From a virus (lineage: Duplodnaviria; Caudoviricetes): a DNA stretch of 64,000 nt. Both the position numbers and the translations under genes were made by a program. Numbering within the stretch: position 1 is the stretch's first letter; each line of letters opens with the position of its first letter. Below are positions 1 through 64,000 of this stretch, one piece after another. The notes under the pieces are model-generated. The model saw only the letters and a program-made list of their open reading frames with translations. It made no database searches and was not told the DNA's origin. The DNA is taken from the IMG/VR virus record IMGVR_UViG_3300020460_000012; one strand, written 5' to 3'.

Positions 1-2
1 AA

Positions 3-3000
3 TCTGAAGTTGATAACACATTGGCTGCAGACTTCCAACAATGGCTAAGATTAATTGGTAGCAAAGAATATACAGAACATGATTTTTACGATCCTAACAA
101 TAGTTTCACATTTAACTACGCAAGTGCTAGCACACCTCTTGGTAATGGTCATCCAGGTTTCTGGAGAGGTGCCTACATGCATGCGTATGGTACAGATCGT
201 CCAAATGCAACACCTTGGGAAATGTTAGGCTTTACAATGAAACCAACCTGGTGGGAAGCAACCTATGGTCCTGCACCATATTCAGGAGATAATCTTGTCC
301 TATGGAAAGACTTAGAAGAGGGAAGAATAAAGGAGCCTGGAGTTGCAGAAGTAGTTAACGGCAAATATGCTAGGCCTGGATTAACAAATCATATACCTGT
401 AGACGGCCAAGGAAAATTAAGATCACCAAGAGATAGTAATTTTGCTAGGGCTTTTTTAAGACGTCAAGCTACTAATGGTTGGAAGTTTGGCGACCATGCA
501 CCAGTAGAAACTGCCTGGAGAAGAAGCAGTGAATTTCCGTTTGCAATACTATTAGCATATTTGCTAAACAAACCAGCTAAAGTAATGGGATTAGGTTTTG
601 ATGTATCTAGGACAAAGAAAAATTTAGTCAAACAATGGATACAAAATGATACAAACAAACCTATACAGCTTTCTACTGCAAAGTTACCAAATACTTACAA
701 AGATGATACTAGGGTACTAACCTGTGGATTAGTAAATTACATATATAACTTGGTAGCAAGTGATGTACTTTCAGTGTATACTGATTATAAAAATAATCTT
801 GCAAACTTGCGAAATCAATTAGGCTTTAAAGTTGGAGGATTTACCGACACAAGCAAGTTTAATTTAATACTTGATAGCAGGTCTCCCACCAAGCAAGCAG
901 ATAGAGATGGAATATTTGTTCCGCAAGAAAGTTTCAAAGTCTTTAACAACACAAGTAGTCCTTTAGAGATGGTGACATATAGTGGTATGTCTGTGGAAAA
1001 AGCTGGATCAGGATATATTATTAGAGGATACAGTAATACTTCGCCAGAGTTTGAATATTATAAACCTAAACAAGGATCATCAAAAATAACTGTCACTGTT
1101 GGAGGAATATCTGAAGCTTCGAGTGAATGGTCTGCAAATACATTTTATGAAAGAGGTCAAGTAATACAATTTAAAAATGAGTTTTATAGGGCGGCAAGAC
1201 AATTTACAAGTGGCGACACATTTACAGCAGATGATACTGTAGCAAAATTAGATGAATTACCTATAACAGGAGGCAGGACAGCACACTTCTTTAAAGATTT
1301 TGACGAAACAGAAGTCTTTAAATTACAGTATGGTACAAGATTATCAACTACACAAGAAGTTGTAGATTTAATGCTAGGTTATAATGCTAGACAAAAAGTG
1401 TTAGGATTTAGTTTTAATGAAGTTGACTCTTTCAATGAGAAAGTTGAAAACTGGGAAAATACTGCAAGAGAATTTATGTTCTTTACTACACAAGGATGGG
1501 CGGCAGGCACAGTTATAACATTAAGTCCTGGAGCACCTAAAATAGAATTTAGTAGACCTAATGTTGTAGTTGATAACCTTTATGACACATTCTATGAATA
1601 TAGCATATTTAAAGCTGATGGACAACCATTATCTGCAGAATTAAATGGAGTAGTAAGAGAAGGTAATAGTTTTGGGTTAGCTGTAGCAGATTCTGATGAA
1701 GGCATATATCATGTAGCATTACCTTTAGTACAAAAAGAACACGTAATTCTATTAGAAAATAAAACAGCATTTAGTGATGTAATTTACGAACCAAAATCCG
1801 GATACAGACAAGAACGTATCAAGGTAAGTGGATATAGAACAGCTGATTGGGATGGAGGATTAAATCTACCTGGATTTTTATATGATGAAGCGAAAATAGT
1901 AGATTGGTCTCAGTGGAAAGATTACAAAATTGGAGAATTAGTCAAATATAAGCAATTCTATTACACAGCAAAAAATAACATTCCTGGTTCCAAAAATTTT
2001 AATGCAAGTAGTTGGTTACAATTATCAAATAAGCCTGAACCAGAGCTAACAGCAAACATGGATTACAAAGCTAATCAGTTTACTGATTTCTATGATTTAG
2101 ACAGTGCAGGTTTTGACAGTGAGCAACAGAGATTAGCACAGCATCTAATAGGTTATCAAAAAAGACAATATCTAGCAAATATTATTAATGACGATGTAAG
2201 TCAATTTAAATTTTATAGAGGATTCATTGGTGAAAAGGGTACTATGAATGCTCTTACAAAATTATTTGAATCTTTAGGTACAGGACAAGAGTCTGCTTTA
2301 GATTTTTATGAAGAGTGGGCAATTCAAACAGGAAGGTTTGGTGCAACAGACAATACTAAACAGGTTGAATTTAGTCTCAAAGAAGATTTAATGACAGAAA
2401 CACCTCAAGCGTTTGAGTTGCTTAATACATTACCTACAACTAATTACGAAAAAGTTTATAGAATATTACCTAATGAAGTTTTTGATAAACCTGAGAATTA
2501 TAATCATGAACCGTTCCCTACAAAAGTAATATCATCAGCAGACGAATATATAAAGACAGGTGGATATGTATCTGAAGAAGATGTAGCATTTGTTGCAGGA
2601 TCAATTCCAGAACTTGCATTAGGTGATGTAAATGCAGTAAACCTAGGCGATTATATATGGGTTGTTGAAACAGGGAAAAATACTTGGAGTGTGTATCAAG
2701 TGATTCCTGCGAACGTCAATGTAGTATCAGCAACAGTAAGAACAGATACTATTTCGAACGATGGTATGCGTTTAATTGACTTACAACTTGACACATGGGC
2801 AGATATTCCATATGATGGAATTAAAGCACTTATCACTGTAAATGATATTATTGGTGTACGTGGCGCGACTGCATATAATCTTGATGGCATGTATGCAATA
2901 GAAAAAGATGGAATAGATTTAACTAAAGTAACAATTAAAGCAGATATAAATGTTGAAACAGAAGACTTTGAAGGCGAATCATTTCAAGTTGTTAAATTTA

Positions 3001-6000
3001 GAGAAGTGCGTAGAGCAACTATTGACGAACTTAATGTAAGTCGTTATGACATGTATGAAAAGCAAAAAGTATGGATAGATAATTATAATGGTGATTGGGC
3101 CGTACTTGAGAATAATCCAGCATTTTCAGAAAACCAAACAATTTATAATACATCAGATTTTGATAGCACCGCACATGATTTTAGTAAAGGTGGCACTGTT
3201 ACAGAAAATAACAATGATGTTTTTGTTTCTGCACCAGGAGACGGTTCAGGAAAAATTACGCATTATAAAAGAACAAACGAAAAGAATAATTTAGTTTATG
3301 ATAATGTAATTCAATTAGATGCTAATGATGATTTACTTAATACTGCAAGCACTTCAAGATTTGGTGAAAGTATATCAGTAAGCCCAGACGGCGAATACTT
3401 AGCAGTAGGTATGCCAAACGCAACTGGAATCAAAACAAAATTTAAAGGTGACTTTGACAAAACACAAACTTACACTAAAGCTGATATTGTAAAGTATAGA
3501 GAAAGTTTATGGAAAGCAAACAGAGAAATACTTCCAGAAATTTCTTCGCAAGCATTTACTACATTTGATACATATGTTAACTTGGCTGCTTCTGCTGATG
3601 CAGACTCTACAACTTTACAGCTACTAGTAGCAGGTGATCCTGGTTTAGCTAATAATACAGTAGATCATTTACTAGTTAGAGCACCAAAAGACATGTATTT
3701 AGGCACTTCTGCAGGAGATACTATTAGTTTATATTGGAATCAGCGAAGTTTTGCTTATCCTACATTAGATAATTATTTGCCGTTCAACGGTGCAATCCCT
3801 CAAATTAATTTTAGTTTTCTAACAGGCCAGCATACGATTGTCCATAAAGTTGATCATGTGTTGTTTGTATCAACATTTGTTACACTACCTACTGTAGGTC
3901 AAACAGTTACAACAAACACTGGTAGTGCTACAGTCGCATACGTAGGAACAAAAGCTGATAGTGCAGTAATTTATATTAAAGACACTAATGGTATATTCAA
4001 TGTTACAGATGAATTGTTTATTGACGAAACAATATTTGTTGGTTTTTATTCTGAAACATCAACTTACAACACAAGTTCAGCTGTAGATGGATTTTGGTAT
4101 ATTAATACTGGATTTAGTTATTCTAATAATGCAACATACTATGACACAGGTAGAGGATTAGTATATGCAGATGTTAGATTAGCTTCATCATCAAGAGCAT
4201 TTAATACATATTCAAATATTCAACAGGCTGTAGGTTCGATTGGATCATATGTTAAGAATAAAAATAGAGCCAGCTATATTACACATTTATCTTACAGAGG
4301 TGATCCAGGCGGCGTCGAAGCAGATCAACTAAGCAACAAATGGGTAGTAAGAGGTGAAAAATCTTATACTGACACTTTAAGTGCAGGAGATGAAACTGAA
4401 TTTAGAATATATGATCTAGAAAACAGAACAGTGGATGTTACTTCGGCTGGATTTAGTCTAGCTATTTTAAATAAAAAACAAACTATTGTAGATCTTTGGG
4501 ACGGATATATAGATTTTACTTTTGATGAATTTGATTTTAACGGAAATGTATTCGAACCTGTAATAGGAGATATAATCAGTGATGTACAAATTCCAAACGA
4601 CGGACAAGGCGGGTTGGCAATTACAACTCAAACTACAAGCACAGCGGAAGTTGTATTTTATAGAAGAAACTTTAACAGCGTAAGAGTTTATGTAAAAGCA
4701 TTAAGCGGCGATTGGAGCCAGTTAACAAACATAGGCAAGTATTCTATACAACGTAATGCAAATACAGCAGTAAGAGGAATTGCTGACGTAAATCGTGTTA
4801 TGGGCACAGTAGCTGACGTAGACAATGATATTGCAGTTGGGACTGCTACTGTAGGTAAATTAATAGTATTTGAAAATAGTTCACAATTCAATGTTGTTAC
4901 TAATCCAGAAATTGTTGATGAGGAATATTGGTTCTTTAACGAAAATACAGAACAGGGTATTTCTAGGACAGAAAATCCTCCATATAGTCTGAACAAAGAT
5001 TACACACAAGTATTTCATATACAAGCAGAAGCTACTGGAGTAGCAGGTCCTAACACAGAAGGTGCGGTAGCAATATATAGAAGAACTGAAGGAGGAAATT
5101 ATAGACGACAGTATGTGTTTGTTTCTGAACATAGAAAAGAAAATAGAAAATTCGGCAAAAAAGTCAAACTAGTACAAAAAGGAAATTATTATACACTTGC
5201 AGTTTCAAGCGAAGGTTTAGGTACAAGAGAAGATCCAGGTAGTATCGAATTTTATAGGCATGGTGTTAAGCCAGAACAAGTCAATAATTTTAGAGGCAAT
5301 TATCAGATAGCCGCATACAGTGTTGGCGATATTGTAAAAAATAATGATTTATTTTACCTTTGTATAAGAGCCGCGGCTAGCACAAATTTTGTTTCTGATC
5401 CTGTGTATTGGGAAAATATAAGTTGGAAGCACGGAAAAGACAGAAATTATAGAGGTGTATGGGACAATACTTACAGATATGAAAAAGGCACTATAGTAGA
5501 ATACAATAATCAACTTTACAAAGCAAAAACTAATATTGCGGTAGGCGCTAGTTGGGCACCAACTAGCTGGGATTTGCTAACAACTAATATAGACTATATT
5601 GGAATGTTACCAAATAGAACGAGTAAAACTTTTTATACAGACGAAAACATATTTGATCCTATACAGGATATACAACAATTTAGTAAAGATTTCGATCTAA
5701 GCAAAGATGGAGATGTGCTTGTTACCACAAGCACACAAGTTGCTACAGATAGTACCAGAGATATTGCAGTAGTAATATACAGAGAAGTAGATGATAAGTT
5801 TCAGTTTTCTCAAATGATCACTGAAAAATCAGCAGTTGACGGCTTTGCTGATAAAGTAAGTATGAATCCTGAAGGAACAAAGATTGCTGTTAGTGCTCCT
5901 TTGGAAGATACTACAAGAATTAATCAAGGCGTTGTAAACATTTATAGTGCAGATACTAGCGGAACATTCGGTACCCCAATTACTACGTCAACGCAGATAG

Positions 6001-9000
6001 ACTGGACACAGTTTGCTACAGCAGTTTTAGAAATGTCTTCAAATAACTTTACTCATCCACTAGTACCTTTCTTAAAAACGCAACATACAGATGGAAGAAT
6101 TTATGCTGATGCTAATTTAAGTGGAAATATTGCAGATAGTGTAGATCAACAAGCAGATGATATAAATGTTTGGGACGCATTAGAATGGCAAAGATATGCG
6201 GCTGATCAAGATAATCATACGGTTAACAGTCATTCTTGGATAGATGGCACAGTAAAATCTGCATTTCTTAAAGTAGCAAGTTCTTATCCTTCGGCTTTGA
6301 AAACAGTAAATGTTGATGTAGGAGAATGTACACCTAATCAAATTTTACTTCCACCACAAGACGAAGAATCAGAAAAGTTTGGTCATAGTGTTGAATGGGG
6401 ATCAGAATACTTGGCTATATCAAGTCTTAATGGGGATCAAAAAATTCCTACAGAATTTGATACATATACAAAAACACAAACAGATTCATATCAGTTAGAT
6501 GTAACCTCTGATAGGAAACAAACACCTACTACTTTTGACAATAAATTTACCACATTTAAAAATATAAAAATTGACAAAGGTGTTATATATCTGTACGAAA
6601 CACTAGAAAACAAAGTAACACAATCAGAAGTTATTACGTTTCCATTAATACAAACAACGTTCGGAGAAAATCTTCTAGCACAAGGAAATCATTTGTATGT
6701 AGGTTTACCTCAACAATTTGATAATAATAAAAGAGGTGCTGTAGTTGATTTTAGAAAACTGCCAGGAAATAATGCTTGGAAACAAATAAGAAGCAGTGTT
6801 ACTCCTGTTGATGTAGATAAAATTAGAGGAGCATTTTTATATAATAAAAGAGAAAATCAAATTGTTACATATCTTGATTTCATAGATCCTGTGCAAGGAA
6901 AAATAGCAGGTATTGCAGAACAAGAAATTGATTTCAAAACAAAATATGATCCTGCTTTCTACAATACAGGACAATTGGCAGATGATAATGTTGATCCTAA
7001 TAGGCACTGGGCTGAAAAGTATATAGGTAAAGTATGGTGGAATATTGCAGGAGCAAGATTTGCTCATCCTTATCAAGGTAGTACTAATTTCCAAAGAAAC
7101 GTTTGGAACACACAATTAGAAGGCTCAACAATTAATGTTTATGAATGGGTAGAAAGTAAATTACTACCATCTACTTGGGATTCTATTGCTGATACAGATG
7201 AAGGGTTAGCACAAGGTATTAGCGGAATAAGTTTGTTTGGTAATACAAAATATACAACAAGATTAGTATATGATAGTGTAAGTAAAACTTTTAATAGTCT
7301 ATATTACTTCTGGGTAGAAAACAAAAAAACAATACCTGCAAACACAAAACGTTTATTAAGTATTAGAAACATTGCCGCACTTATAGGAAATCCAAAAGAT
7401 CAAAAATATAGATATCTTAGTTTGCTATCTAAAAATAAGTTCCTATTAACAAATTGTAATGACATTGTTAATAATGACGATATTGTTTTAAACATAAAAT
7501 ATACAAATGATAATTTACAAAAACAAAAACAAAATACACATAGTCAATATCAAATTTTAAGTAAAGGCTTATCTACTAGTGTGCCAAATCCTGATATACA
7601 ATTAAAATGGTTTGATAGTTTGATAGGATTTGATGATAAGGAGCGTAAAGTCCCTAACACTGATGTACCAGTAAAAAGTAGATACGGAATTCAAAACAGA
7701 CCAAGACAAGGAATGTTTGTTAACAGATTTGAAGCACTAAAACAATTTATTGAACGTGTAAATCTTGTATGTAAACAAAACCTATTAGCTGACGAATATG
7801 ATCTAAGTTCATTATCTATGAAAGAACCTTTGCCTACTTTATTAAGTGGCGAATATGATCATAAAGTAAGTACCTATAGCGAAATAAATTTTATTAGTAC
7901 AAGTAAAGTAACTCCTGCAAAGCTTACTCCTGTAGTCCTAAATGGTAAAATTGTTAGAGTAACAATTGATGATGCAGGTAGAGGATATAAAGTTGCTCCA
8001 AGACTTAAAATTACCGGCGCAGGAAAAGATGCTGAAGTAAAATTAACTATAGATACTTTAGGAAAAATTACTTCTGCAACTGTAGAAAATCAAGGAACAG
8101 GTTATGATGAAAATACTTACATTAGTGTAAGGAGATACAGCGTATTAGTTGAAGCTGATAATACAGTGTTTAATAAATGGGCATTGTATTCTTGGAACGA
8201 AACTGATAGTGTATGGTTTAGAAGAAGCATACAAGACTATGACGTAACACAGTTTTGGAGTCAAATTGATTGGTATGCAGATGGCTACAATCAATTTACA
8301 GAAATAGATGATATAATTGCAGGTTCTTACTTACTTACAAGTCTTGATAATAGCATAGGTGATGTTGTAAAGATTAATAGTGTAGGATCTGGCGGATGGC
8401 TACTATTAGAAAAAATTGCAGATGAAGATACAGAAGATTATACAGTAAATTATAAAACAATTGGTAGACAAAACGGAACAATTGAATTTAATGATAGATT
8501 ATATGATTATACAAAAAACACTGTAGGTTTTGACAATAGAAGTTTTGATAGCTATTTCTACGATAATACGCCTGCAAAAGAATTAAGAATAATACTTAAT
8601 GCAATAAAAGACAAAATTTTTATAGGTACTCTTGCAGTTGAATATAATGAATTATTTTTTGCTTCATTAAGATATGTATTAGCTGAGCAAAAAGGTGCTG
8701 ATTGGTTATTTAAAACAAGTTTTGTTAAAGCTAAACACAATCTTGGACCTTTATACCAAGATCTAACATTTAATAATGATAATTTAGCAAATTACGAAGC
8801 TTACATTAATGAAGTGAAACCATATAGCACGAATGTTAGGGAATTTGTAAGTAATTATTCTACAGTACAAGAAACTAATACAACAATTAGTGATTTTGAT
8901 TTACCGCCAGAATATAATAATTTAACAAAAGCTATAGAAGCTAGTAAGGCACAAGTTATTGATGGTGTAGTAGTTTCTTCACCAAACAGTGCAAGTATAT

Positions 9001-52137: not shown

Positions 52138-52141
52138 TCAA

Positions 52142-53713: not shown

Positions 53714-53721
53714 TATTTATA
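53714..53721 (-). promoter_or_regulatory. Perfect T4 late promoter TATAAATA
   Basis: Upstream of the AGGAG RBS of 52142-53680. Confidence 0.65.
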
Positions 53722-53747
53722 CCTTTTTAGAGATAAACTTCGTTTAA

Positions 53748-54062
53748 TTATTTACGCTTCATAAAAGTTTTTGTTTGGGTTTTGACATCATTTACTAGAC
53801 TAGGAGTATCTAGCTTAAATTCAACATATTGAATCATTTCGTTGTATTCTTTAAAAAAGGTATTTAGAGTCTCCTCTAACGACATCATGCCGGATTTGCC
53901 AGCAGTTTTATTTTTGTCGATGTCTATATCCCACTTTTTACCGTCAGTAAATGTTACTTGCACACTTACTATGTATTTGACAGGAATAGCTTTTAGTTCG
54001 ACATGTTCGAAAACTTCTGGCCAATAATCAACTACTTCTGCTGGTAGACGATTCTTAGACAC
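53748..54062 (-). CDS. Hypothetical protein, 104 aa
   Basis: Overlap-coupled to the upstream gene. No motif. Confidence 0.7.
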   Translation of the reverse strand: MSKNRLPAEVVDYWPEVFEHVELKAIPVKYIVSVQVTFTDGKKWDIDIDKNKTAGKSGMMSLEETLNTFFKEYNEMIQYVEFKLDTPSLVNDVKTQTKTFMKRK

Positions 54063-54657: not shown

Positions 54658-54667
54658 ATTTTTCTCC

Positions 54668-54952
54668 TTAAGATGCCGGTTGCTGAGGCTGTTGTTGTGC
54701 TACTGCTTGAAGGAAAGTTTCTAACTTTTGATAAGTTTGTCCAACAGTTACCATTTCGTTAGGTCTAAAAGCACCTCGCTGACTAGCAACATCAATAATA
54801 CTTTTAATAGACTGCAAATCCTGAACGGTTAAATCAGGTCCGGCTTGAGCCTCAGGTGCCGCTTCAGATGGTGTACCTACAGGCTCACCAGCAAGTGCAG
54901 TTGCCGCATCTGCCGCGTCTACTGAATCATTTTTTGCTTCATTATCGCTCAT
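54668..54952 (-). CDS. Hypothetical protein, 94 aa
   Basis: AGGAG RBS. Acidic A/P-rich N-terminus followed by a helical LTVQDLQSIKSIIDVASQRGAF segment. Confidence 0.75.
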   Translation of the reverse strand: MSDNEAKNDSVDAADAATALAGEPVGTPSEAAPEAQAGPDLTVQDLQSIKSIIDVASQRGAFRPNEMVTVGQTYQKLETFLQAVAQQQPQQPAS

Positions 54953-54989
54953 AATTTTTTCTCCTATATAATTAATTATGTTAAATTTA

Positions 54990-55271
54990 TTATGAGTACT
55001 TTAAATGTGGACAAGCTAACATAAAGTAACTCATATCTCTATTTTCTTCAAACCCAACAGTAATTATCTGAGAAAGTTTGTTGTCTTTGTCTAAAGTGAC
55101 TTTGCGTCCAACGTAATATCTGTTCTTAACATTAGATTGAATCCATTTACTTAGACTTGTTTCTAGGTTGTATTTTAATGGTAAGTCAACGTATTCAAAA
55201 TAAGGCACAGGTGATTTTACCTGCCTAATGTTGAAAACATTAAACGGATTAGGTTTTTTATCTTTTATCAT
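54990..55271 (-). CDS. Hypothetical protein, 93 aa
   Basis: ATGA overlap with the vWA gene. Confidence 0.7.
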   Translation of the reverse strand: MIKDKKPNPFNVFNIRQVKSPVPYFEYVDLPLKYNLETSLSKWIQSNVKNRYYVGRKVTLDKDNKLSQIITVGFEENRDMSYFMLACPHLKYS

Positions 55272-56713
55272 GCGGCTTCTTCATAGTGTGCAGTTATACC
55301 AAAAGGTGCCTGCAAGTTTTTATCTCTGTTACTATGGATTACAAATACAGTTTCACAGTAGTCTTCTTCTCCCCAAGAATCCCATGCATATCCATCTGTA
55401 AACATAAGAAGTTTTTTAGGAACAATATTGTGTTCTTTCATGTAGGTCCAATTTACCATAAAGTCGGTGCCACCACCGCCGTGTACTTCATAGTCCTCTA
55501 AGCTTTCTCCGCCATCTGCACTGAAGTCTGCTTCATTGTATACTTCAGTGTCAAAGCACCACAATTTAATATTGTAGTCTCTGTATTCATCCATAATACC
55601 TTTTACTTCACCTAAAAAATCTTTAGCCTGATCGTTGCCAATTGAACCTGACATATCAATACAGATGCACAAATCAATAGTTTCTTGAAAATTCATTCCA
55701 GGAAGTATAGCACCAGTATGCCATCCCTTCCTACCAGGACGACTAAAAGTGTAATCATCACGTATAGTAGATTGTATTTGTTGACGTAGTATTTCACGCC
55801 AGTTCATTTTAGGTTCTGTAAACTCTTTTATCATACGTTCAACACCTGCAGGAACATTACCAGCACCTGCACTCTGTGCCGCCGAGATCATGTTTTCTTT
55901 AATCTCGTCACGTATCTTTCTAAGCTCTTCTTTACTGTATGAAGGTCGACCTTTTCCTTTAGTAGGCTCACCGTCTCCACTATTAGCACTAGGTGCTTGT
56001 CCTTGTTGATCTTCGTTAGGATCTTTACTCCAGTCAACATGCTCATCAAGAAGTTCGCCTAGTTGTTTAAGTTCTTCTTCATCAAATTTTTGTTCAAGAT
56101 CATCATATACTTCTTCAGAAGTCCAATTTTCATATTTAAAATCTTGGTAACAATCAATTATCTTAGGCTTCTCTCCAATACCTTCACGTACCAAAAGATT
56201 ATTTACAATATAATCACATGCAATATTATAAAGCATTGCATCTCTATCTTCACGTCTTAAAAGGTGATCAAATACACAATGTAATATTTCGTGTGCAATA
56301 ACAAATTCAATCTCACGATTGTTTAGAGCATTAAAAAACTGTGTGTTAAAATATAAGTTCCTACCATCTACTGCGGCTGTAGGACACCAATCATCTGCAG
56401 GTACAATTCTAAGGCGTGTAGCCATATTGCCAAAGAAAGGATGCCTTAGTAGTAAACCTACACGGGCAACAATAATGCGATCTTGTACATCTTCTCGCAT
56501 TAATTTTAATTCTTCTTCAGTAAGATCTGGATTAGGCTTCCAATTCTTTTTGCCTATTTGCTCTCTGACACCATTTAACACTCTGCCCATATCAACGTTT
56601 TTACCTATTTTTGGAATAGGTGCATTTGAGTTTGGGTCTTCATTTAATGCATGATTAGTGATATGCTCAATCATTGCATTTTCTTCTTGAATTTGTTTTT
56701 GTGTCAGTGCCAT
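55268..56713 (-). CDS. HExxH metallopeptidase-like + vWA domain protein (DUF2201-like), 481 aa
   Basis: TAAVDG...HEILH (HExxH), N.ACD, vWA MIDAS motif IDMSGS, GGGGTDF and FTDGY. Confidence 0.85.
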   Translation of the reverse strand: MALTQKQIQEENAMIEHITNHALNEDPNSNAPIPKIGKNVDMGRVLNGVREQIGKKNWKPNPDLTEEELKLMREDVQDRIIVARVGLLLRHPFFGNMATRLRIVPADDWCPTAAVDGRNLYFNTQFFNALNNREIEFVIAHEILHCVFDHLLRREDRDAMLYNIACDYIVNNLLVREGIGEKPKIIDCYQDFKYENWTSEEVYDDLEQKFDEEELKQLGELLDEHVDWSKDPNEDQQGQAPSANSGDGEPTKGKGRPSYSKEELRKIRDEIKENMISAAQSAGAGNVPAGVERMIKEFTEPKMNWREILRQQIQSTIRDDYTFSRPGRKGWHTGAILPGMNFQETIDLCICIDMSGSIGNDQAKDFLGEVKGIMDEYRDYNIKLWCFDTEVYNEADFSADGGESLEDYEVHGGGGTDFMVNWTYMKEHNIVPKKLLMFTDGYAWDSWGEEDYCETVFVIHSNRDKNLQAPFGITAHYEEAA

Positions 56714-56748
56714 TGTGCCTATACCCTCTTTTCTAACTTTATATACAT

Positions 56749-56776
56749 ATTATAACATATTTAACAAGTTTGTCAA
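56749..56776 (-). promoter_or_regulatory. sigma70 promoter (repeat copy A)
   Basis: TTGACA-16 nt-TATAAT with an extended TG. Flanks match copy B at 57959-58012. Confidence 0.8.
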
Positions 56777-56780
56777 CCAG

Positions 56781-56815
56781 AAAAATGGAGAGCGGATACA
56801 TAATACCCGCCCTCC
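56781..56815 (-). terminator. Rho-independent terminator after the MoxR ATPase gene
   Basis: GGAGGGCGGGUA-UUAUG-UAUCCGCUCUCC forms a 12-bp stem with 2 GU pairs, followed by AUUUUU. Confidence 0.8.
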
Positions 56816-56821
56816 TAGCTA

Positions 56822-57910
56822 TTAAGACGCCTGAGCGGCCTTAATATACTTGCCATATCGCTCGTGGAATTCGTCAAAGCATTCCACTGCGTCTGGGTCA
56901 ATGGGTAACGAATATTGAGTAAGTGCGAGCTTTATGCCCATTACAACTAACTCAGTATCAAAGTTATCCATTGAAAATCGCAGGAAGTTGTTGACTTTAT
57001 CGTCAAACTTTTTGTCACCTTTATCACATGCTTCTTTCAGCTCGTAACATAATGACACAGTGAGGGAATACATAGCACTGATTTCTTTACTGGTCATCTC
57101 AGTGACCTTCCCTGCGAGTATATCAGTTGGATTAGGCATTTGACTAGCAACCTTACGGTGTGCCATAAACTTCACTGCTAGTCCTTCACCAACTGCACCA
57201 CTAACCAAATCGGTTGTAGTGGATTCGTCTACATCGTCATCCAATAATTCTGAAATGAACGACCACGAACGAGGTGTTGCAAAAGAACGACTTGGACTTT
57301 TCGGATCAAAGTCATATAAGTCTTTCTTCGCAAAAGTTAAGTAACCAACAACGTCTTGGTGTTGGTCGTTAGTAACAGCCCACTGAAACCAGTCGTCCCA
57401 AACAACTGTAAGTTCAATATGGATAAATCTGTTAGCCAACGGAGCAGGCATTCTGTATGTAACACCTTTGTCGGCCTCTCTGTTACCAGCGGCAATAATT
57501 AAAACGTTATCTGGAAGCTTATACTGTCCAATACGTCTGTTAAGTATAAGTTGATAAGCCGCCGCTTGCACACTAGGTGCCGCGGAATTCATCTCATCTA
57601 AAAATAACACAACATAGTCAAATTGTGCCGCAAATTCTTCACTAGGTAATTCTGCAGGAGGTGCCCAAACCATTGTGCCTGCATTGCTATCAAAATACGG
57701 AATACCTTTAATATCTGTAGGTTCCCATAGTGATAGTCGAATATCAATTAAATGACTGTTACCTAAGTCATTTGTAATCTGTCCAACAATATCGGACTTA
57801 CCAATGCCTGGGGGTCCCCATAAGAAGATTGGACGTTTCTTCGTCATAGCATGTCTAATGCTCTTCTTAGCTTGGTTTGGTCCTACTGTTCTAAGTGCTG
57901 TCTGTTCCAT
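56822..57910 (-). CDS. MoxR-like AAA+ ATPase
   Basis: ATG at 57910 after GAGGG. Walker A GPPGIGKS, Walker B LFLDE, AAGNR, PAPLANRF and TPRSW. Confidence 0.9.
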   Translation of the reverse strand: MEQTALRTVGPNQAKKSIRHAMTKKRPIFLWGPPGIGKSDIVGQITNDLGNSHLIDIRLSLWEPTDIKGIPYFDSNAGTMVWAPPAELPSEEFAAQFDYVVLFLDEMNSAAPSVQAAAYQLILNRRIGQYKLPDNVLIIAAGNREADKGVTYRMPAPLANRFIHIELTVVWDDWFQWAVTNDQHQDVVGYLTFAKKDLYDFDPKSPSRSFATPRSWSFISELLDDDVDESTTTDLVSGAVGEGLAVKFMAHRKVASQMPNPTDILAGKVTEMTSKEISAMYSLTVSLCYELKEACDKGDKKFDDKVNNFLRFSMDNFDTELVVMGIKLALTQYSLPIDPDAVECFDEFHERYGKYIKAAQAS

Positions 57911-57976
57911 TGTATTTCCCTCTGTATCTAACATAAGTGTTAAAGTTATCAGTGCTAATTTCTAACTTATATATAC

Positions 57977-58004
57977 AGTATAGCACCTTTTACATAAATG
58001 TCAA
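57977..58004 (-). promoter_or_regulatory. sigma70 promoter (repeat copy B)
   Basis: TTGACA-16 nt-TATACT with an extended TG. Confidence 0.8.
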
Positions 58005-58023
58005 CCGGAAAATACGTTTTTTT

Positions 58024-58686
58024 TTAAAAAAGATTAGAAATTTCTTGTGCAGATTTTGTATTAAAATCAATGCCAACATTAATTCGTAAGCTATTAGGAT
58101 TATCTTTTTGGACACTATGCCATTCAAAATGGTTAAAAATTAACCATTTATCTTCTACTAATTCAGCTTGGTCTGCTACTTCTAGCTTCCTTACATCAGG
58201 AATTCTGTATTCGTCAATAACCTTAAAATCTTCTGTATTCTTCCACCAAGTAGTTTTTTCTTTGTCTCCTTTTAGTAATCTAAATATGCTAGCCTTTCTA
58301 TAATGTCCTTTATGCGGATAAAGCATGGTGCCGCCAGTGCTTACTTGTAAAATAGGTTCCATTTCGTCTCTACCTAGATCTTTAATACAATCTGGTAGGC
58401 TATCTATTAATTCGTCAGCTAAGTCATCTGGTAAACTGTATTGGCTAAATTCCAATCTTGTAGCACCCGGAAACTTACGAAGCATTAATAGTTTCCTTCT
58501 CATTAGTTCTTTAGCATCTCTAACACCGACTATTTGCTCCATTTCTTTTATGGTACTGCTATGACTTAATCGTCTCCATGCTGGATTTCTTAGAATAAAT
58601 TTATCTAAAGGTGTATTTTTGATCTTTTCACATATGTCGGTTGAAAATTCATTTTCAATATATTTGTAATACATACTATCGCTCAT
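58024..58686 (-). CDS. 2OG-Fe(II) oxygenase-like protein with non-canonical HxGH motif, 220 aa
   Basis: PHKGH, FNHFEWHSV and RINVGIDF. Confidence 0.5.
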   Translation of the reverse strand: MSDSMYYKYIENEFSTDICEKIKNTPLDKFILRNPAWRRLSHSSTIKEMEQIVGVRDAKELMRRKLLMLRKFPGATRLEFSQYSLPDDLADELIDSLPDCIKDLGRDEMEPILQVSTGGTMLYPHKGHYRKASIFRLLKGDKEKTTWWKNTEDFKVIDEYRIPDVRKLEVADQAELVEDKWLIFNHFEWHSVQKDNPNSLRINVGIDFNTKSAQEISNLF

Positions 58687-59260
58687 ATTGTATATTGAAG
58701 CTAATACTAATTCTTTCGTGGTCTGTTGTATTTGTATATGTACCGTGTTCTAATACTCCAGGCCATAAACCTATCAAACCTTCTTTAGCTTGTATTTGTT
58801 GATCTCCATTTATACAACCATATATAAAATTTGGAGTTAGTAGTTGTAATGGAGTTTGGAAATAAATGTTGCCGTCACGTTCGTTGGTTTGTAAATAGTA
58901 TACACCAGCTATATCATTTGCACCATGATCATGCCTATGTGCATATTGTCCTTTACATGTTTTTGTAAACCAACTTTGTGTAATGTGATATTTTCTTTCA
59001 AACTGAAATCCAATTTGGTCTAAGTAATTGTTGAGGCTTTTATCTAAAAAATTTAAAAATAATTTACAATCCATATCTGTAAGGATATCTCTGGTAAATG
59101 GGTCTTCGCTTAGATAGTGCGTATCTTTACCCCAACCTTTCTTTCTAGAAAATTTTAATTTTTGGTATGTTAAAAATAATTCATTTTGAATGGCTTTAAA
59201 TTTCTCGCCATGCACTTGATCCCAATACATAGGAGTAGGAAAATGGCCCTGTGTTGGCAT
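58676..59260 (-). CDS. Putative 2OG-Fe(II) oxygenase (TIGR02466-like), 194 aa
   Basis: SWF...HRHDH...AGVYYL...WPGVLEHG...ERISISFNI. Confidence 0.8.
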   Translation of the reverse strand: MPTQGHFPTPMYWDQVHGEKFKAIQNELFLTYQKLKFSRKKGWGKDTHYLSEDPFTRDILTDMDCKLFLNFLDKSLNNYLDQIGFQFERKYHITQSWFTKTCKGQYAHRHDHGANDIAGVYYLQTNERDGNIYFQTPLQLLTPNFIYGCINGDQQIQAKEGLIGLWPGVLEHGTYTNTTDHERISISFNIQYER

Positions 59261-59766
59261 TATATCTCCTCTAAGCTTGGTAGTTGTCCTGTTATTTGTA
59301 ATGTATAACGGTCCGTAAGACCTATATTAGCCGCACTATGCCGACAAAAAGCATCAAATAACACAAATTCTCCTCGCTTGTAATTTACTATTGCCCTATG
59401 TTCTATATCAAAATAATGCCCCGGCTCCCAGTCTTGTAATACAATTACTGCTCGCCAAACCTTAGATTTTTCAACATTAAATAATTTTTGGTATGTTAAA
59501 AAGTGGTCTACATGTCTTGGCATAATATCTCCTGTGGACATTTTATAAAATGTAAATCCACAATTTGATAGACCTATTTTTTGTGCAATAGTGTTAAGCC
59601 ATTCAAAGTTTTCTTTGACTACACACATTTCGCCAGTAAAACTATCATGTTTATAACCTTGGCGTTTCCATTCTGTTATATCATCTGCATACGCAGATTG
59701 TTTTTTATAATTTAATTTTTTATACTCATCATTTACGGGAAGATCTACTTGTCCTTGAAACCACAT
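59260..59766 (-). CDS. 2OG-Fe(II) oxygenase-like protein, 168 aa
   Basis: PRHVD, RHSAAN and RYTLQITG. Confidence 0.6.
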   Translation of the reverse strand: MWFQGQVDLPVNDEYKKLNYKKQSAYADDITEWKRQGYKHDSFTGEMCVVKENFEWLNTIAQKIGLSNCGFTFYKMSTGDIMPRHVDHFLTYQKLFNVEKSKVWRAVIVLQDWEPGHYFDIEHRAIVNYKRGEFVLFDAFCRHSAANIGLTDRYTLQITGQLPSLEEI

Positions 59767-59768
59767 TA

Positions 59769-60155
59769 TTAACCTTTCTCTGTTGTTCTTGACATTGCCT
59801 TTGTTAAACCATATTTTCTTAAGTCTCCTGAAAAAAGACTAAGTTCGACTGCTTTCTTTTCGTTTGTAACAACAATAGATCTTGGTCCAATATAGTAAGG
59901 ACAATCTATAAACTTATCTAAGAATATTATTACCTGTGTAGTCAAAGGCATATCTTTTGGGTAAGGTACATCATATGTTGCTAAATCGATTTCATTAATT
60001 ACGTCAAATCCAGCTTCTGTTAATCTAAGTCCTCCTTGGCCTTTATCCCTTGTGTTTTTCCACCACAAAGGCATAAATTCTTTAATTGATACTTCGTTTG
60101 CACTTTTACCTTGTTCTTTTAAAAAGATTTTGGTATATGCTTCTTTCCAGTTCAT
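59769..60155 (-). CDS. Hypothetical protein, 128 aa
   Basis: ATGA overlap with the upstream gene. Confidence 0.75.
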   Translation of the reverse strand: MNWKEAYTKIFLKEQGKSANEVSIKEFMPLWWKNTRDKGQGGLRLTEAGFDVINEIDLATYDVPYPKDMPLTTQVIIFLDKFIDCPYYIGPRSIVVTNEKKAVELSLFSGDLRKYGLTKAMSRTTEKG

Positions 60156-60442
60156 TCCTCTGTAACTACTTCGCCATCGGTAAGTTTGTACACTGCAAAT
60201 GCTTCGCTGTCGAACATATCATTTAGTTTTTTAGCTAGATTGTGTGCATGTCCTGGATTTGAAAAAGAAACTTTCTTATACTTTGGGCCAGGGTAATTTG
60301 TTAGCATATTTGCACTTTTTAAATTAAATGGCTTTTCTTGATAAAACACAGCCCAAATAGCTTCAGCTTCTAATACTTGATCTGCCTTATAATTGTCGTT
60401 ATTAATATGCTCTAGAATTACTGTTGGTTTCGGTCTGCTCAT
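60152..60442 (-). CDS. Hypothetical protein, 96 aa
   Basis: AGAAGGA RBS and an upstream late-like promoter. Confidence 0.8.
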   Translation of the reverse strand: MSRPKPTVILEHINNDNYKADQVLEAEAIWAVFYQEKPFNLKSANMLTNYPGPKYKKVSFSNPGHAHNLAKKLNDMFDSEAFAVYKLTDGEVVTEE

Positions 60443-60477
60443 ATACGTATCCTTCTATTAACTACGTATATATTTAT
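60441..60477 (-). promoter_or_regulatory. Late-like promoter ATAAATA overlapping a 9-bp hairpin that encloses the RBS and start codon
   Basis: ATATACGTA (arms at 60441-49 and 60463-71) with a 13-nt loop containing AGAAGGA. TAAATA at 60471-76. Confidence 0.5.
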
Positions 60478-60500
60478 CTCTTTTTACATTAACTGCATAC

Positions 60501-60743
60501 TTATTTCCAGCCTGCACCTCCATCTACATTAACTTCTATTACTTCATCTGACTTAGTGCTTTCTGCAACTAATTTTTCAAGATCTCCTTCAAGTCTTGAC
60601 ATAACTATACCCAATGTAAATGCTAAATTTTTAGCAGTAGCAATATCTATATTAACATTTCTAGCTTGACTTTGGTCAGCACTTTTTACTGTTTGAATAA
60701 ATTGCTGAATAGGTATAGTGTTTAGTGTATTATCTATTGGCAA
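60501..60743 (-). CDS. Hypothetical protein, 80 aa
   Basis: AGGAG RBS. Overlaps the upstream gene. Confidence 0.75.
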   Translation of the reverse strand: MPIDNTLNTIPIQQFIQTVKSADQSQARNVNIDIATAKNLAFTLGIVMSRLEGDLEKLVAESTKSDEVIEVNVDGGAGWK

Positions 60744-61197
60744 TTGACAACTCCTGCCTCATCTCAACATCAGTTTTAAAAGGCCCTTTTGATTCATATC
60801 GTTCTATTGTTACTAGCTTAGGACAAAAACTTTTGACCCAACCCTTGTCGAAATGTATAATATAATATCCTGCACAATATAAACTATTAGATTTTGACGA
60901 TTTTGTAAAAAGAGGTAATTTACGTTTTACATCATACATAGTGTTGTATGGTGTTACACTTGTAGGAAAGCCATGCACGATTTTTTCAGAATTTTTAATT
61001 TTTTTCGGTACATCGTTATCCCAAGTAATAGTTCCTAATTTTTTGCTTATTTGTCTTTGATTGTCAAAAAAGCATGTTTCATCATTACAAGAATAAAGAT
61101 ACCTATCATCATTATAGCTTAGTGTGCCTACCTTTTGCCCATTATCCTCAACAATCCAAAATTTATTTTTTAAAACTGTACTAATTTTTATTGTCAT
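60730..61197 (-). CDS. Hypothetical protein
   Basis: ATG at 61197 in an ATGA overlap with the exonuclease gene is preferred over the track start at 61275. Confidence 0.75.
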   Translation of the reverse strand: MTIKISTVLKNKFWIVEDNGQKVGTLSYNDDRYLYSCNDETCFFDNQRQISKKLGTITWDNDVPKKIKNSEKIVHGFPTSVTPYNTMYDVKRKLPLFTKSSKSNSLYCAGYYIIHFDKGWVKSFCPKLVTIERYESKGPFKTDVEMRQELSIANR

Positions 61198-62180
61198 GCA
61201 GGGTACCTCGCTTGTAATGGTTGGGCATAATGAGAAGCCTGGTCTGCAATTTTCTGCATATCCCATTTTGCACAAAATTTCATAAGACGCATACCAACTT
61301 GTGAAATTTCTTTAGGAGTCATCGACTCTTCTATCACATCATTTATAATACTACGAATGTTACCAGGTTGTGCAGACAAATCACATAATATTACATTTCT
61401 ATTGTAATCATCTAATACACGATGTTCTACACCTTCATGATCTACCCAACGTTGTAGCATCATATTATTCCAGTTAAACCCTTTTGTATCTTTATCAGCA
61501 AATGCTTCTATAAGGCCGACTTTGTTCTTAGTGCCTTTTTTACGTACACCAGGATAAGCAGAAAAGACGTTATCGCTTGTGTCACCACGCATACATTTTT
61601 CAAATAACATAAATGCAGGATCTGGAGCAGGCTTTGCTTCTTTAGTTTTTTTATCAATTACAGGAGCACCTTTGTCTGTAAAATAACCTTCATGTGTAAT
61701 TGTTGTATTACTTACACCGTTATACTGTTTTACATTAGGTGCAATAAGTTGTGCAAAGTCACCATCAGTAGATATAATAACATGATTGTCACGCGGATGA
61801 GATTGTATCCAACCTGCAATAAGATCATCAGCTTCTAGCTGGGAATGTTGCATAACTGTGCAATTTGTTTTATCTGTAACAAAGTTTTTAAATTCGTCGA
61901 ATACTTCCCAAAAAAGGGTATCTTCTTCAGCCTCTTTAGCAGTAAGAGCATCACGTGCTACTTGCCTATTTCTTTTGTAAGGCTCATAAAAATCCTTACG
62001 CCAACTACGACCTTCTAGACAAAAAACAACATGATCTGCATCAAAGTCTTGCCATGCCTTTTTAATACTATTAAGAGTAATATGGAGAGCCATACCTACT
62101 TTAGTATCAAGATCACCACGGACTACGTGTCTAGCACGAAAGAATGTATTTGCAGTATCAACTAGTACATATGTACTCAT
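61194..62180 (-). CDS. 5'-3' exonuclease / T4 RNase H-like (FEN/PIN fold), 328 aa
   Basis: LVDTAN, EGRSWRK...YK.NR, EADDLIA, STDGDF and GDTSDNV. Confidence 0.9.
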   Translation of the reverse strand: MSTYVLVDTANTFFRARHVVRGDLDTKVGMALHITLNSIKKAWQDFDADHVVFCLEGRSWRKDFYEPYKRNRQVARDALTAKEAEEDTLFWEVFDEFKNFVTDKTNCTVMQHSQLEADDLIAGWIQSHPRDNHVIISTDGDFAQLIAPNVKQYNGVSNTTITHEGYFTDKGAPVIDKKTKEAKPAPDPAFMLFEKCMRGDTSDNVFSAYPGVRKKGTKNKVGLIEAFADKDTKGFNWNNMMLQRWVDHEGVEHRVLDDYNRNVILCDLSAQPGNIRSIINDVIEESMTPKEISQVGMRLMKFCAKWDMQKIADQASHYAQPLQARYPA

Positions 62181-62209
62181 AAGTCAGTCCTTTACTAAAA
62201 TTATAGTTT

Positions 62210-62238
62210 ATTATAACATATGAATAAATCTTTGTCAA
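62210..62238 (-). promoter_or_regulatory. sigma70 promoter
   Basis: TTGACA-17 nt-TATAAT with an extended TG, upstream of an AAAGGA RBS. Confidence 0.8.
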
Positions 62239-62239
62239 C

Positions 62240-62971
62240 TCAAAGTTTGAAATATTCTGTGTTATTATCAGAATCATGTTCTTTTTTTAAGTCTGGCTTT
62301 TTAAAGAACTTTTCTGGATCAATAAAGGTCCTATGCTCCAAATGTTCTAGACATCCGAAGTATGGAGGCATATACAAGTATATGTCCATTGCTAAACTTA
62401 CTCTTGGTTCTTCTCCCTCATATACTGGAACAAAATGTTCTACATATCCAGGAAAAAATGTTAAGCCTCCTTTTACATTTGGTAATGACACAGCCATTTC
62501 CATATGTTCATAAACTGTGCTACTATCTTTATAGTCGTCCAAATGCATATTTGCACTTAGATAAGTAGATTCTCCCGCACAATGTCGGTGTGTATCAATT
62601 TTATCACCTTTACGTAATATATTATACCAACAAGTAAAATGTAAATGATAGGGCTGGGTTTTATCTTGGAATATAAATTCTGCCCATTGAAATCTTATAA
62701 ATTCAAGCAAATCTTTCAATTCAGGACATTCATCTGCAAAGTCAAATACATGATATCTACCATATCTAGTAGTAACTTTATCTTCATCTAATCCTGTTCT
62801 TCCTTGTCCTTGCCACGGAAGTTTTAGGACTTCTTCTTCTTTTCCTATTAAGAAATTTCTTATTGTATCTATTTTATCTTTCTGATCCCACTGTGCAAAT
62901 CCTAGTGGTGCGTCCCATGAAGGAGCATAAGGGGTTACAGGCTGTTGGCTCTTTAACCTTGTAATGTGCAT
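62240..62971 (-). CDS. Putative 2OG-Fe(II) oxygenase (TIGR02466-like), 243 aa
   Basis: CWYN...THRH...LSANM...FFPGYVEHFV...PRVSLAMD. Confidence 0.75.
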   Translation of the reverse strand: MHITRLKSQQPVTPYAPSWDAPLGFAQWDQKDKIDTIRNFLIGKEEEVLKLPWQGQGRTGLDEDKVTTRYGRYHVFDFADECPELKDLLEFIRFQWAEFIFQDKTQPYHLHFTCWYNILRKGDKIDTHRHCAGESTYLSANMHLDDYKDSSTVYEHMEMAVSLPNVKGGLTFFPGYVEHFVPVYEGEEPRVSLAMDIYLYMPPYFGCLEHLEHRTFIDPEKFFKKPDLKKEHDSDNNTEYFKL

Positions 62972-63378
62972 TAAGACACCTCAGACTTTCCCTTGTCAAT
63001 AGGTACAACATTTATGTATCCCATATCTCTGTCTGTAGATTGTCCTTCTTCTTCTAGCATTTGTATAACAATGCTTCTAAACCAAGCATCAACAATAGCT
63101 TCATTTGTTTCGCCACTGTATCCTGCGTCAAGTAGTTCTTCAATAAATTGATTGTTCCAATCAAGTTCGAAGAATCCGTTTTTAATATTTTCAGGATTTA
63201 CCTGCGTATCGAGTACTGCTACCCAAGCTTTGCCCGCTTTAGTTGCTTCTTGTTTTTCTTTTTCAAGAACTGCTCTTCTTTCATCTTCTGAAGAAACTGG
63301 CACAACTTCTGGTTCGGGTTTCTTTCCTAACGTTTTGTTTACAAAATCTGCAAACCAAGATTTTTCATTTTTTGTCAT
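62971..63378 (-). CDS. Hypothetical protein
   Basis: ATG at 63378 after AGGAG, in an ATGA overlap. Motif GFFELDWN. Confidence 0.75.
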   Translation of the reverse strand: MTKNEKSWFADFVNKTLGKKPEPEVVPVSSEDERRAVLEKEKQEATKAGKAWVAVLDTQVNPENIKNGFFELDWNNQFIEELLDAGYSGETNEAIVDAWFRSIVIQMLEEEGQSTDRDMGYINVVPIDKGKSEVS

Positions 63379-63620
63379 ACAGTTATCTCCTCCTTCCTTA
63401 CTTTTGATGCCCACCATTTGTCAAGTATAAAATACCAAACTGAATTGGCAATCGGTTCAACAATAGCGTCTGTAGCCGCTACTGATAAAGGTACATCTGC
63501 AATTAACATCAAGCAAGTAATTGCAATTATAAAATGTCCTATGGTGTATATTACTGTTCTTGTTAAAGAACCTTTGCTTTCTCTAATTACATTCCATATT
63601 CCTACTGTTAGTTCTGTCAT
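63375..63620 (-). CDS. Small membrane protein, DUF2061-like, 81 aa
   Basis: ES...RTVIYTIGH, two hydrophobic helices, and WYFILDKWW. Confidence 0.6.
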   Translation of the reverse strand: MTELTVGIWNVIRESKGSLTRTVIYTIGHFIIAITCLMLIADVPLSVAATDAIVEPIANSVWYFILDKWWASKVRKEEITV

Positions 63621-63730
63621 ACTAACCCCTTTCTTCTAAGCTTTTCGATATCAATAGGCGCCTTCATAGCCTTATCGAGTTGCTCTTTGCCTTTGTCTTT
63701 TTCTTTGACTTTATCAAGTACCCCACGCAT
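63617..63730 (-). CDS. Small basic protein, 37 aa, overlapping the queE 3' end
   Basis: MRGVLDK...RRKGLV. Fills the gap after queE, and its TGA overlaps the next ATG. Confidence 0.45.
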   Translation of the reverse strand: MRGVLDKVKEKDKGKEQLDKAMKAPIDIEKLRRKGLV

Positions 63731-64000
63731 TTCCGAATAAGGATATGTGGAGTCTTGGCGTAAATCTCCATCCTCTTTCCATACACGCCTCCGCAACTTC
63801 TTGAACATTGAGATTATACTCTTCAGAGCGTCCCCCCAACGGCATAAGATATACCGGACAGTTGATCCCGGCGCTACGATACTCTTCGACAGCTCTAGTA
63901 ACTTCATCAAAGTCATCTTGAGTAGCAACCACAAACTTAAGATAAAGATCACTACCATCCACATTGTAATACTGACTAGCAATGTCAGGCTTAATAGCAG
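63714..64000 (-). CDS. queE: 7-carboxy-7-deazaguanine synthase (radical SAM), C-terminal part; 5' end beyond the window
   Basis: The frame is open to the window edge (AIKPDIASQYYNVDGSDLYLKFVV). It has VYLMP and the QueE-type terminus WRFTPRLHISLFGNAWGT. The CxxxCxxC motif is not in the window. Confidence 0.75.
   Translation of the reverse strand, partial: AIKPDIASQYYNVDGSDLYLKFVVATQDDFDEVTRAVEEYRSAGINCPVYLMPLGGRSEEYNLNVQEVAEACMERGWRFTPRLHISLFGNAWGT

Follow-up and report, generated by a model that had tools for sequence, protein, structure and literature searches.

The 64,000-nucleotide (64 kb) stretch of DNA analysed here, referred to as the window and taken from the IMG/VR virus record IMGVR_UViG_3300020460_000012 (Duplodnaviria; Caudoviricetes), has been almost completely purged of the pentamer GCWGC (W, A or T), very likely through selection against a GCWGC-cutting restriction enzyme of the bacteria that this phage lineage infects. 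The exact count is 5 GCWGC sites (starts 24, 3585, 16725, 18660 and 24289), with none past position 24293, and 74 GCSGC sites (S, G or C; 37 GCGGC and 37 GCCGC), in agreement with a preliminary description of the sequence, which had listed these same five sites, none in the last ~40 kb, and roughly 70 GCSGC. The G+C content of the window is 33.6%, so that from composition alone GCWGC should be about twice as frequent as GCSGC, the reverse of what is found, as had also been pointed out there. A maximal-order Markov model predicts 65 GCWGC in the window (observed/expected ratio, O/E, 0.08; z −7.5), the strongest depletion of any 5-mer. The codon-aware null, in which synonymous codons are permuted within each of the 60 inferred genes (97% coding) so that protein sequence and per-gene codon usage are preserved, gives 60.4 ± 4.1 GCWGC (the lowest of 300 shuffles having 49) and 18.2 ± 3.8 GCSGC (the highest of 300 having 30). 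When all 4-, 5- and 6-mers are ranked in this way, GCWGC is the top depletion (z −13.7) and GCSGC the top enrichment (z +14.8); neither the Markov model nor the codon-preserving shuffle brings the O/E of GCWGC, which stays at 0.08, near 1. Three null models agree, and the deficit is confirmed as real and highly significant. It concerns both orientations of the word, GCAGC (2 vs 36 expected) and GCTGC (3 vs 26), and therefore lacks the orientation-specific character of Type III-style avoidance.

The codon-level anatomy of the deficit is dominated by pairs of alanines, since 85% of the potential GCWGC sites are Ala-Ala dicodons. The first codon of the 61 Ala-Ala pairs in the window is never GCA and only three times GCT, the others being GCC (22) or GCG (36), whereas about 90% of the remaining Ala codons are GCA or GCT. 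The assertion that Ala-Ala is almost always written GCG-GCN or GCC-GCN thus holds for 58 of 61 pairs, and third-base usage in these pairs is the inverse of normal Ala usage and not the same. Counted in the Ala-Ala frame, GCWGC occurs 3 times against 51.3 expected and GCSGC 58 times against 9.7, so that the 48.3 sites lost equal the 48.3 gained, a silent swap of the wobble base, one for one. Two compensated runs illustrate the pattern:

13085..13093, + strand: compensated Ala-Ala-Ala run gcg gcc gca in the tail-fibre gene 12821-14881
57558..57566, − strand: compensated run of Ala codons within the ATPase gene, reading GCG GCG GCT on the coding strand

All the runs first offered as examples do show the Ala-Ala pattern, although two of their coordinates need correction (GCC starts at 5370 and 35763, not at 5369 and 35762), and the run at 57558 had been read as gcc gcc gct, which holds for Ala-Ala-Ala and not for the codons, the gene lying on the minus strand.

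The comparison with relatives indicates that this trait is not shared by the whole phage family. IMG/VR contains hundreds of relatives of the window phage, and because CheckV rates a relative of 146 kb as 40% complete, the genomes of the family are estimated at about 360 kb; the window is a member of this uncultured marine jumbo phage family. Eighty IMG/VR loci around the ATPase gene were sampled, a single stretch of ±10 kb per locus serving both for the ATPase tree and for the measurement of the GCWGC trait, and five relatives' contigs were analysed in full with the codon-aware null, namely G001 (146 kb), G002 (79 kb; L089-L092, of L028), G003 (104 kb; L093-L098, of L060), G004 and G005 (83 kb; L103-L107, of L037). 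The O/E of GCWGC among the 80 loci ranges from 0 to 1.2, and four of the contigs separate into avoiders and non-avoiders:

G001 (146 kb): GCWGC O/E 0.20, GCSGC O/E 3.4, Ala-Ala mostly GCS-GCN
G002 (79 kb): GCWGC O/E 0.07, GCSGC O/E 3.5, Ala-Ala mostly GCS-GCN
G003: GCWGC O/E 1.02, GCSGC O/E 1.95, Ala-Ala as GCW-GCN in about 83-88%
G004: GCWGC O/E 1.01, GCSGC O/E 1.67, Ala-Ala as GCW-GCN in about 83-88%

Ala codon usage is the same in the non-avoiders G003 and G004 as in the avoiders, and the avoider G001 retains 30 GCWGC sites per 146 kb. Strong avoiders stand at five places on the ATPase tree, at least three of them forced by well-supported branches, and the nearest kin of the window on this tree, L001 (93% amino acid identity) and L009, are non-avoiders. 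These lineages are old, since L001 is only 80% identical to the window in DNA, with 37% of third positions differing. GCWGC avoidance is thus polymorphic and lineage-specific within the family, and a trait that differs between close relatives is a mark of restriction repertoires at the level of strains and by itself indicates no host taxon; the suggestion that the depletion provides a handle for host prediction was overstated, as for the host taxon the handle is a weak one. Two further observations concern the distribution of the sites. The GCWGC:GCSGC ratio is uneven along G005, suggesting that this contig is a mosaic of DNA from avoiders and non-avoiders, and the ATPase position 57558-57562, GCCGC in the window, is GCWGC in 45 of 51 non-avoiders and also in the strong avoiders L068, L028 and L014, being a residual site common to these independent avoiders.

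The purge extends to the two frames in which GCWGC does not encode Ala-Ala. In these frames the window has 1 site vs 5.6 expected and 1 vs 3.8, the avoider G001 2 vs 15.0 and 0 vs 7.5, and the avoider G002 0 vs 7.7 and 0 vs 3.3. GCSGC does not rise in these two frames above the surplus that is seen in non-avoiders as well. A W-to-S change in these frames would alter the protein, and GCWGC is depleted there all the same; the silent escapes are AGT or TCN for AGC after an NGC codon, CAA for CAG, and Leu codons other than CTG between ..G and C.. codons. These data bear on causes unrelated to defence, such as a codon-pair or translational preference in Ala-Ala, avoidance of CAG/CTG-repeat-like structures, or a base-calling artefact. 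A codon-pair effect could look alike, given the share of Ala-Ala dicodons among the potential sites, and nanopore base-calling errors have been reported at GCWGC-modified DNA (PMC10687267). Nevertheless, relatives with the same codon usage write Ala-Ala as GCW-GCN in 83-88% of cases, and the two other frames are purged by different substitutions, so that a codon-pair preference is excluded; the 4-mers GCAG and CAGC, which overlap the word, are near expectation in the window under the Markov model; and the same signature is found in independent IMG/VR contigs from different metagenomes and respects the reading frames, which an artefact of base calling or assembly would ignore and which excludes it. 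Taken as a group, the non-defence causes are scarcely credible. A separate feature of the GCSGC counts is an excess in frame 2 (nGC|SGC), at about 2.5 times the codon-aware expectation and equal in avoiders and non-avoiders (82 vs 31 expected in G001, 67 vs 26 in G003); it is a dicodon bias of the whole family and has nothing to do with the avoidance of GCWGC. The idea that the GCSGC excess of the non-avoiders is a ghost of past avoidance was considered and rejected, since this excess is confined to frame 2, where avoiders have it equally, and the Ala-Ala frame of the non-avoiders sits at expectation.

The substitution spectrum can be read from the fate of the sites in aligned DNA. None of the 637 GCWGC present in the relatives' DNA aligned to the window is kept in the window, and 301 of them are GCSGC at the same position. 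The replacement base (G or C) in independent avoiders, compared at the few alignable sites that were ancestrally GCW, is the same in 11 and different in 4 cases among the loci, and the same in 6 and different in 3 among the contigs. The preliminary description had offered, next to selection, loss through methylation-driven mutation. In such decay, 5-methylcytosine (m5C) at GCWGC would be eroded by C-to-T deamination, as in vertebrate CpG. GCWGC is indeed a known m5C site, methylated at position 2 (PMC5608340, PMC8557920), and the likeness to vertebrate CpG depletion lies in the loss of a short methylation-target word. The deamination products GTWGC/GCWAC and GCWGT/ACWGC are not enriched, their O/E being 1.10-1.14 in avoiders and 1.04-1.15 in non-avoiders, and they account for 16 of the 637 aligned fates, against the 301 W-to-S changes at the centre of the site. 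There is no increase in Val-Ala or Ala-Val dipeptides, contrary to what decay would produce, and both cytosines of the Ala-Ala site are second codon positions, so that decay would change the protein, yet the swap is silent; neither the window nor the five partial contigs of the relatives yielded an m5C methyltransferase. Unlike in vertebrate CpG decay, there is no TG/CA-type excess and the losses are silent W-to-S swaps, which points to selection and not to hypermutability. Methylation-driven decay is therefore contradicted by the substitution spectrum and rejected, its residual probability being close to nil.

The purge affects structural, accessory and core genes alike, as had been proposed, and is seen in all five functional blocks of the window, accessory enzymes included:

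1..12188, + strand: giant virion open reading frame (ORF) block; GCWGC 2 vs 10.6 expected, GCSGC 11 vs 1.7
12189..20300, + strand: tail-fibre block; GCWGC 2 vs 15.1 expected, GCSGC 21 vs 4.0
20301..43800, + strand: accessory block; GCWGC 1 vs 11.8 expected, GCSGC 16 vs 5.4
43801..55270, no single strand: mixed block with 2-oxoglutarate (2OG)/Fe oxygenases; GCWGC 0 vs 13.2 expected, GCSGC 14 vs 3.4
55271..64000, − strand: ATPase-exonuclease block; GCWGC 0 vs 9.8 expected, GCSGC 12 vs 3.8

The accessory block provides two positions at which the swap can be followed in relatives:

23814..23818, + strand: converted site, GCCGC in the window and in the avoiders G001 and G002, GCAGC or GCTGC in the non-avoiders G003 and G004
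35763..35770, + strand: gcc gcg gc of an Ala-Ala-Ala run; the site at 35766 is GCGGC in the window, GCCGC in the avoider G002 and GCAGC or GCTGC in the non-avoiders

As avoiders carry GCSGC, and non-avoiders GCWGC, at both 23814 and 35766, the accessory genes have been converted in place, and these in-situ conversions support the earlier proposal that they are long-term residents. The five residual sites are the following:

24..28, + strand: GCTGC in the Ala-Ala frame, giant (>4061 amino acids) virion ORF
3585..3589, + strand: GCTGC in the Ala-Ala frame, giant ORF; ACCGA in the non-avoider G003
16725..16729, + strand: GCAGC in frame nnG|CAG|Cnn, 3' end of the tail-fibre-like gene 14878-16746
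18660..18664, + strand: GCTGC in the Ala-Ala frame, ORF 18279-19220
24289..24293, + strand: GCAGC in frame nGC|AGC, ORF 23676-24599; relatives have GTTCT, GTGCA, GTGCT and GCGCT

Two of them probably arose de novo, judging from the aligned sequences, the site at 3585 because the non-avoider G003 has ACCGA there and the site at 24289 because no relative carries a site at that position. All five lie within the first 24.3 kb, a weak clustering (P ~0.019, computed post hoc).

A purge that is independent of gene, strand and frame, silent, and confined to some lineages fits selection against a sequence-specific endonuclease. The proposal of long-term selection against a GCWGC restriction system is supported by the silent purge in three frames, on both strands and in all blocks, and by its absence from close relatives with equal codon usage, which purge other restriction-type sites. 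The depletion, the way it is built at codon level, its occurrence in every class of gene and its uneven spread among relatives are direct observations; a host restriction enzyme as the selective agent is inferred from this signature. According to this scenario, the bacteria infected by the lineage would carry an endonuclease cutting unmethylated GCWGC and would thereby impose sustained selection for site loss. BbvI-type Type IIS enzymes read GCAGC, and the putative enzyme may be either of this kind or a Type IIP enzyme reading the palindrome, like TseI or ApeKI, as the data fit both. With each site lost, methylation of an incoming genome would become more likely to precede its cleavage, and if escape is multiplicative per site, the loss of a single site would pay even in a very large genome, so that purging would continue in a genome too large ever to be site-free. 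In Ala-Ala (GCW GCN), the sole silent escape is the change from W to S at the wobble base, which leaves the GCG/GCC-GCN signature, and in the other two frames the changes used are AGT for AGC, CAA for CAG and Leu codons other than CTG.

Phages have been known for decades to avoid restriction sites, the classic cases being coliphage T7 and phages of Bacillus and Staphylococcus, and the window is a new, unusually clean instance of it. As in lytic double-stranded DNA phages with site avoidance, the O/E is below 0.1, the purge is genome-wide, the word is short and of Type II type, and the changes are synonymous; the window differs from these phages in belonging to a jumbo phage of ~360 kb, in which tens of sites must remain, and in that the trait is polymorphic inside one uncultured family whose members purge different words. 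In a systematic survey of phages, avoidance most often took the form of a near-complete loss of orthodox Type II sites, mainly in non-temperate double-stranded DNA phages, and Type III avoidance was rarely seen (Rusinov et al. 2018, PMC6286503). GCWGC itself is a documented restriction-modification recognition sequence: TseI cuts G^CWGC (PMC3643589), ApeKI and M.ApeKI form a GCWGC pair of which M.ApeKI makes m5C (PMC8557920), the methyltransferase M.Pin25611FIII is active on this word in Prevotella (PMC5608340), and GCWGC methyltransferases occur in freshwater and marine Chloroflexi (PMC6329791, PMC8919816), with M.AbaBS3I as a further example (PMC6329791). TseI/ApeKI and BbvI-type enzymes recognize exactly the word that is purged, and its loss in both orientations is what either class would require. 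The known enzymes come from thermophiles or Bacilli and not from marine plankton, and their link to the window is one of specificity.

Several points weigh against a host restriction enzyme as the cause. The selective agent is deduced from a sequence signature; the purge was measured on 64 kb of a genome estimated by CheckV at ~360 kb; at an O/E of 0.08, the full genome would keep some tens of sites, and protection would be only partial; and the GCWGC methyltransferases so far reported from aquatic bacteria are orphans, with no nuclease as partner (PMC6329791, PMC8919816). In the marine methylome papers, GCWGC methylation is found only in the orphan systems of Chloroflexi, with no link to the window phage. 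These orphan enzymes, known from Prevotella (PMC5608340) as well as from aquatic bacteria (PMC6329791, PMC8919816), are the starting point for a different explanation, in which an orphan methyltransferase marks the phage progeny and a Type IIM/IV (BisI-like) nuclease of the next host cuts the methylated site, so that it is methylation that is avoided. The same silent, frame-independent, two-strand purge would be predicted, lists of Type IIM sites include GCWGC (PMC6286503), and methylated GCNGC is reported to be cut by BisI-family enzymes (PMC6286503, PMC4926085); sequence alone does not separate this possibility from classical restriction. Nevertheless, it requires two host components instead of one, and the purges of CATG, GGCC, CGCG and other words in relatives are simplest as classical Type II targets; it is unlikely.

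Self-avoidance, in which the phage encodes its own GCWGC nuclease against host DNA and is itself protected by lacking the site, has in its favor that about half of the window ORFs have no family assignment and that restriction nucleases are hard to recognize from sequence. Against it, the residual sites (5 in the 64-kb window, 30 in the 146 kb of G001) would be self-destructive without a cognate methyltransferase, and a different nuclease would be demanded in every relative for its own purged word. No DNA methyltransferase family and no recognizable restriction nuclease was found among the ORFs of the window (64 of ~360 kb), where the preliminary description had proposed to look for them, and PF00145, PF01555 and PF02086 gave no match in the five relatives' contigs, which are 21-40% complete. 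Self-avoidance is thus very unlikely, and restriction by the host remains the favored explanation.

This explanation is supported by the sister lineages, which remove other restriction-type words. G003, with normal GCWGC, has 8 CATG vs 167 expected, and CATG is purged also in L047 (0 vs 29) and L048 (1 vs 55), these three CATG purgers (G003 through L060) belonging to different clades of the ATPase tree. In G005, CGAAA/TTTCG is reduced to 3 vs 125, with both orientations purged (0 and 3 vs 55 and 71) whatever the flanking base. Further words are purged in single loci:

L043: GGCC, 2 vs 16 expected
L050: CGCG, 2 vs 14 expected
L057: ACGCC, 3 vs 18 expected
L064: ACAGT/ACTGT (ACWGT), 0 vs 17 expected
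L067: GTAAC/GTTAC (GTWAC), 1 vs 18 expected

The window also has a second, weaker purged word, GCGC, found 14 times vs 39-45 expected (O/E ~0.33, z about −5); the depletion holds when Ala-Ala codons are frozen in the shuffle (14 vs 39.3) and is absent from the relatives' contigs G001-G004, and GCGC is probably a second restriction target of the lineage of the window. GGATCC and GTGCAC are both missing from the window, with codon-aware expectations of just 3.5 and 5.5 that make neither absence significant singly; GTGCAC is low in all six sequences (13 observed in total vs about 58 expected) and may be a family-wide feature.

A purge of another kind is found in G002, in which the top strand has no TTAAG (92 expected) and 48 CTTAA (89 expected), the latter spread along the whole contig in genes of both orientations. 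We know of no CTTAA-specific Type III enzyme. By analogy, this one-orientation purge is probably the signature of evasion of a Type III system, as the logic is that of phage T7 and EcoP15I, with 36 co-oriented T7 sites (PMC3874151); the likeness belongs to G002, the symmetric GCWGC purge of the window not being of this type. Apart from these lineage-specific words, CTTA/TAAG and TAAATA/TATTTA are under-represented in the window (CTTA 558 vs 718) and in all five contigs; this deficit may represent avoidance of late-promoter-like motifs inside genes, and as it is family-wide it does not reflect strain-specific restriction.

The set of words purged in the family comprises GCWGC, GCGC, CATG, GGCC, CGCG, ACWGT, GTWAC, CGAAA and the one-orientation CTTAA. 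It may tentatively be proposed, with rather less confidence than for the restriction origin of the GCWGC deficit, that the family records a strain-level arms race in which each lineage has its own set of purged words. If so, these sets could be matched to the methylome motifs of hosts, giving strain-level phage-host pairing, and the pressure would be strong enough to reach the proteome. The patterns seen indicate that the restriction systems in the hosts of this abundant marine phage family are varied and changing, with a probable Type III system among them, and show that site purging still operates in genomes far too large to lose every site. Motif sets combined with community methylomes could provide strain-level links, although the signature alone names no host taxon. 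The family-wide patchwork of purged words and the one-orientation purge in G002 give the window an interest beyond its own GCWGC deficit.

A possible effect on protein sequence comes from the frequency of the Ala-Ala dipeptide, the O/E of which is 0.81-0.86 in the window, G001 and G002 and 1.27-1.28 in the non-avoiders G003 and G004, so that avoiders have about one third fewer Ala-Ala dipeptides than non-avoiders. In aligned orthologues, Ala-Ala is present in non-avoiders but not in the window at 276 positions, and the reverse at 99, the loss/gain ratio for other Ala dipeptides in the same alignments being 0.4-1.7; of the 19 positions with Ala-Ala in most non-avoiders, 10 have it in the window too. 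Across 45 loci, Ala-Ala frequency is correlated with the proportion of Ala-Ala pairs written with GCW (rho 0.47, p 0.001, without correction for phylogeny). These data tentatively suggest that part of the GCWGC purge was paid for in amino acid changes.

Co-binning provides the only lead to the host. Relatives are co-binned in nine GTDB metagenome-assembled genomes (L108-L116), six of the nine being Bacteroidota, namely two Crocinitomicaceae (79% and 88% amino acid identity), Aquirufa, Haliscomenobacter (a 183-kb contig) and two uncultured Bacteroidetes, and the others Puniceispirillum (SAR116; 84% amino acid identity), Beijerinckia and Aquiluna. These contigs are probably mis-binned phage DNA, and since co-binning partly reflects similar composition, it is only a lead; a Bacteroidota host is weakly indicated.

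The gene content of the window is phage-like and includes, besides three tail-fibre-like genes, an ORF of more than 4061 amino acids that is open at the 5' end. The window yielded no tRNA genes, and a near-identity search of cultured phages with the window gave no match. The 23-kb accessory block encodes radical-SAM enzymes, a UDP-glucose dehydrogenase, a DegT-type aminotransferase, hexapeptide and GNAT acyltransferases and a desaturase; the closest genes to the UDP-glucose dehydrogenase are in marine cyanophages and pelagiphages. At least five radical-SAM-like ORFs were counted, at 24602, 27972, 37065 and 38330 (+ strand) and, just outside the block, at 50118 (− strand), the desaturase is a fatty-acid desaturase, and parts of the block align to G001-G004. 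The mixed block contains several 2OG/Fe oxygenases, and the ORF 45711-46655 (+ strand) has a weak QueC-like PP-loop match (27 bits, confined to the N-terminal 66 residues); in the partial contigs of the relatives, DpdA was sought with the Pfam TGT model and gave no match, and the model may be too distant. The minus-strand block at the end of the window encodes, among others, a MoxR-type ATPase, a DUF2201 metallopeptidase/VWA partner and an RNase H/flap exonuclease. The ATPase and the exonuclease share ~50% identity with their counterparts in the Pseudomonas jumbo phage PA5oct; for the exonuclease, the identity with Erwinia jumbo phages of ~355 kb is 49%. The PHROG label of the partner gene, HNH endonuclease (phrog_1314), is misleading, as Pfam gives a DUF2201 metallopeptidase and a VWA-like domain. 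This gene (55271-56713, − strand) adjoins the gene for the MoxR-type AAA ATPase (56825-57934, − strand), and the pair shows 80-93% identity across hundreds of marine phage contigs.

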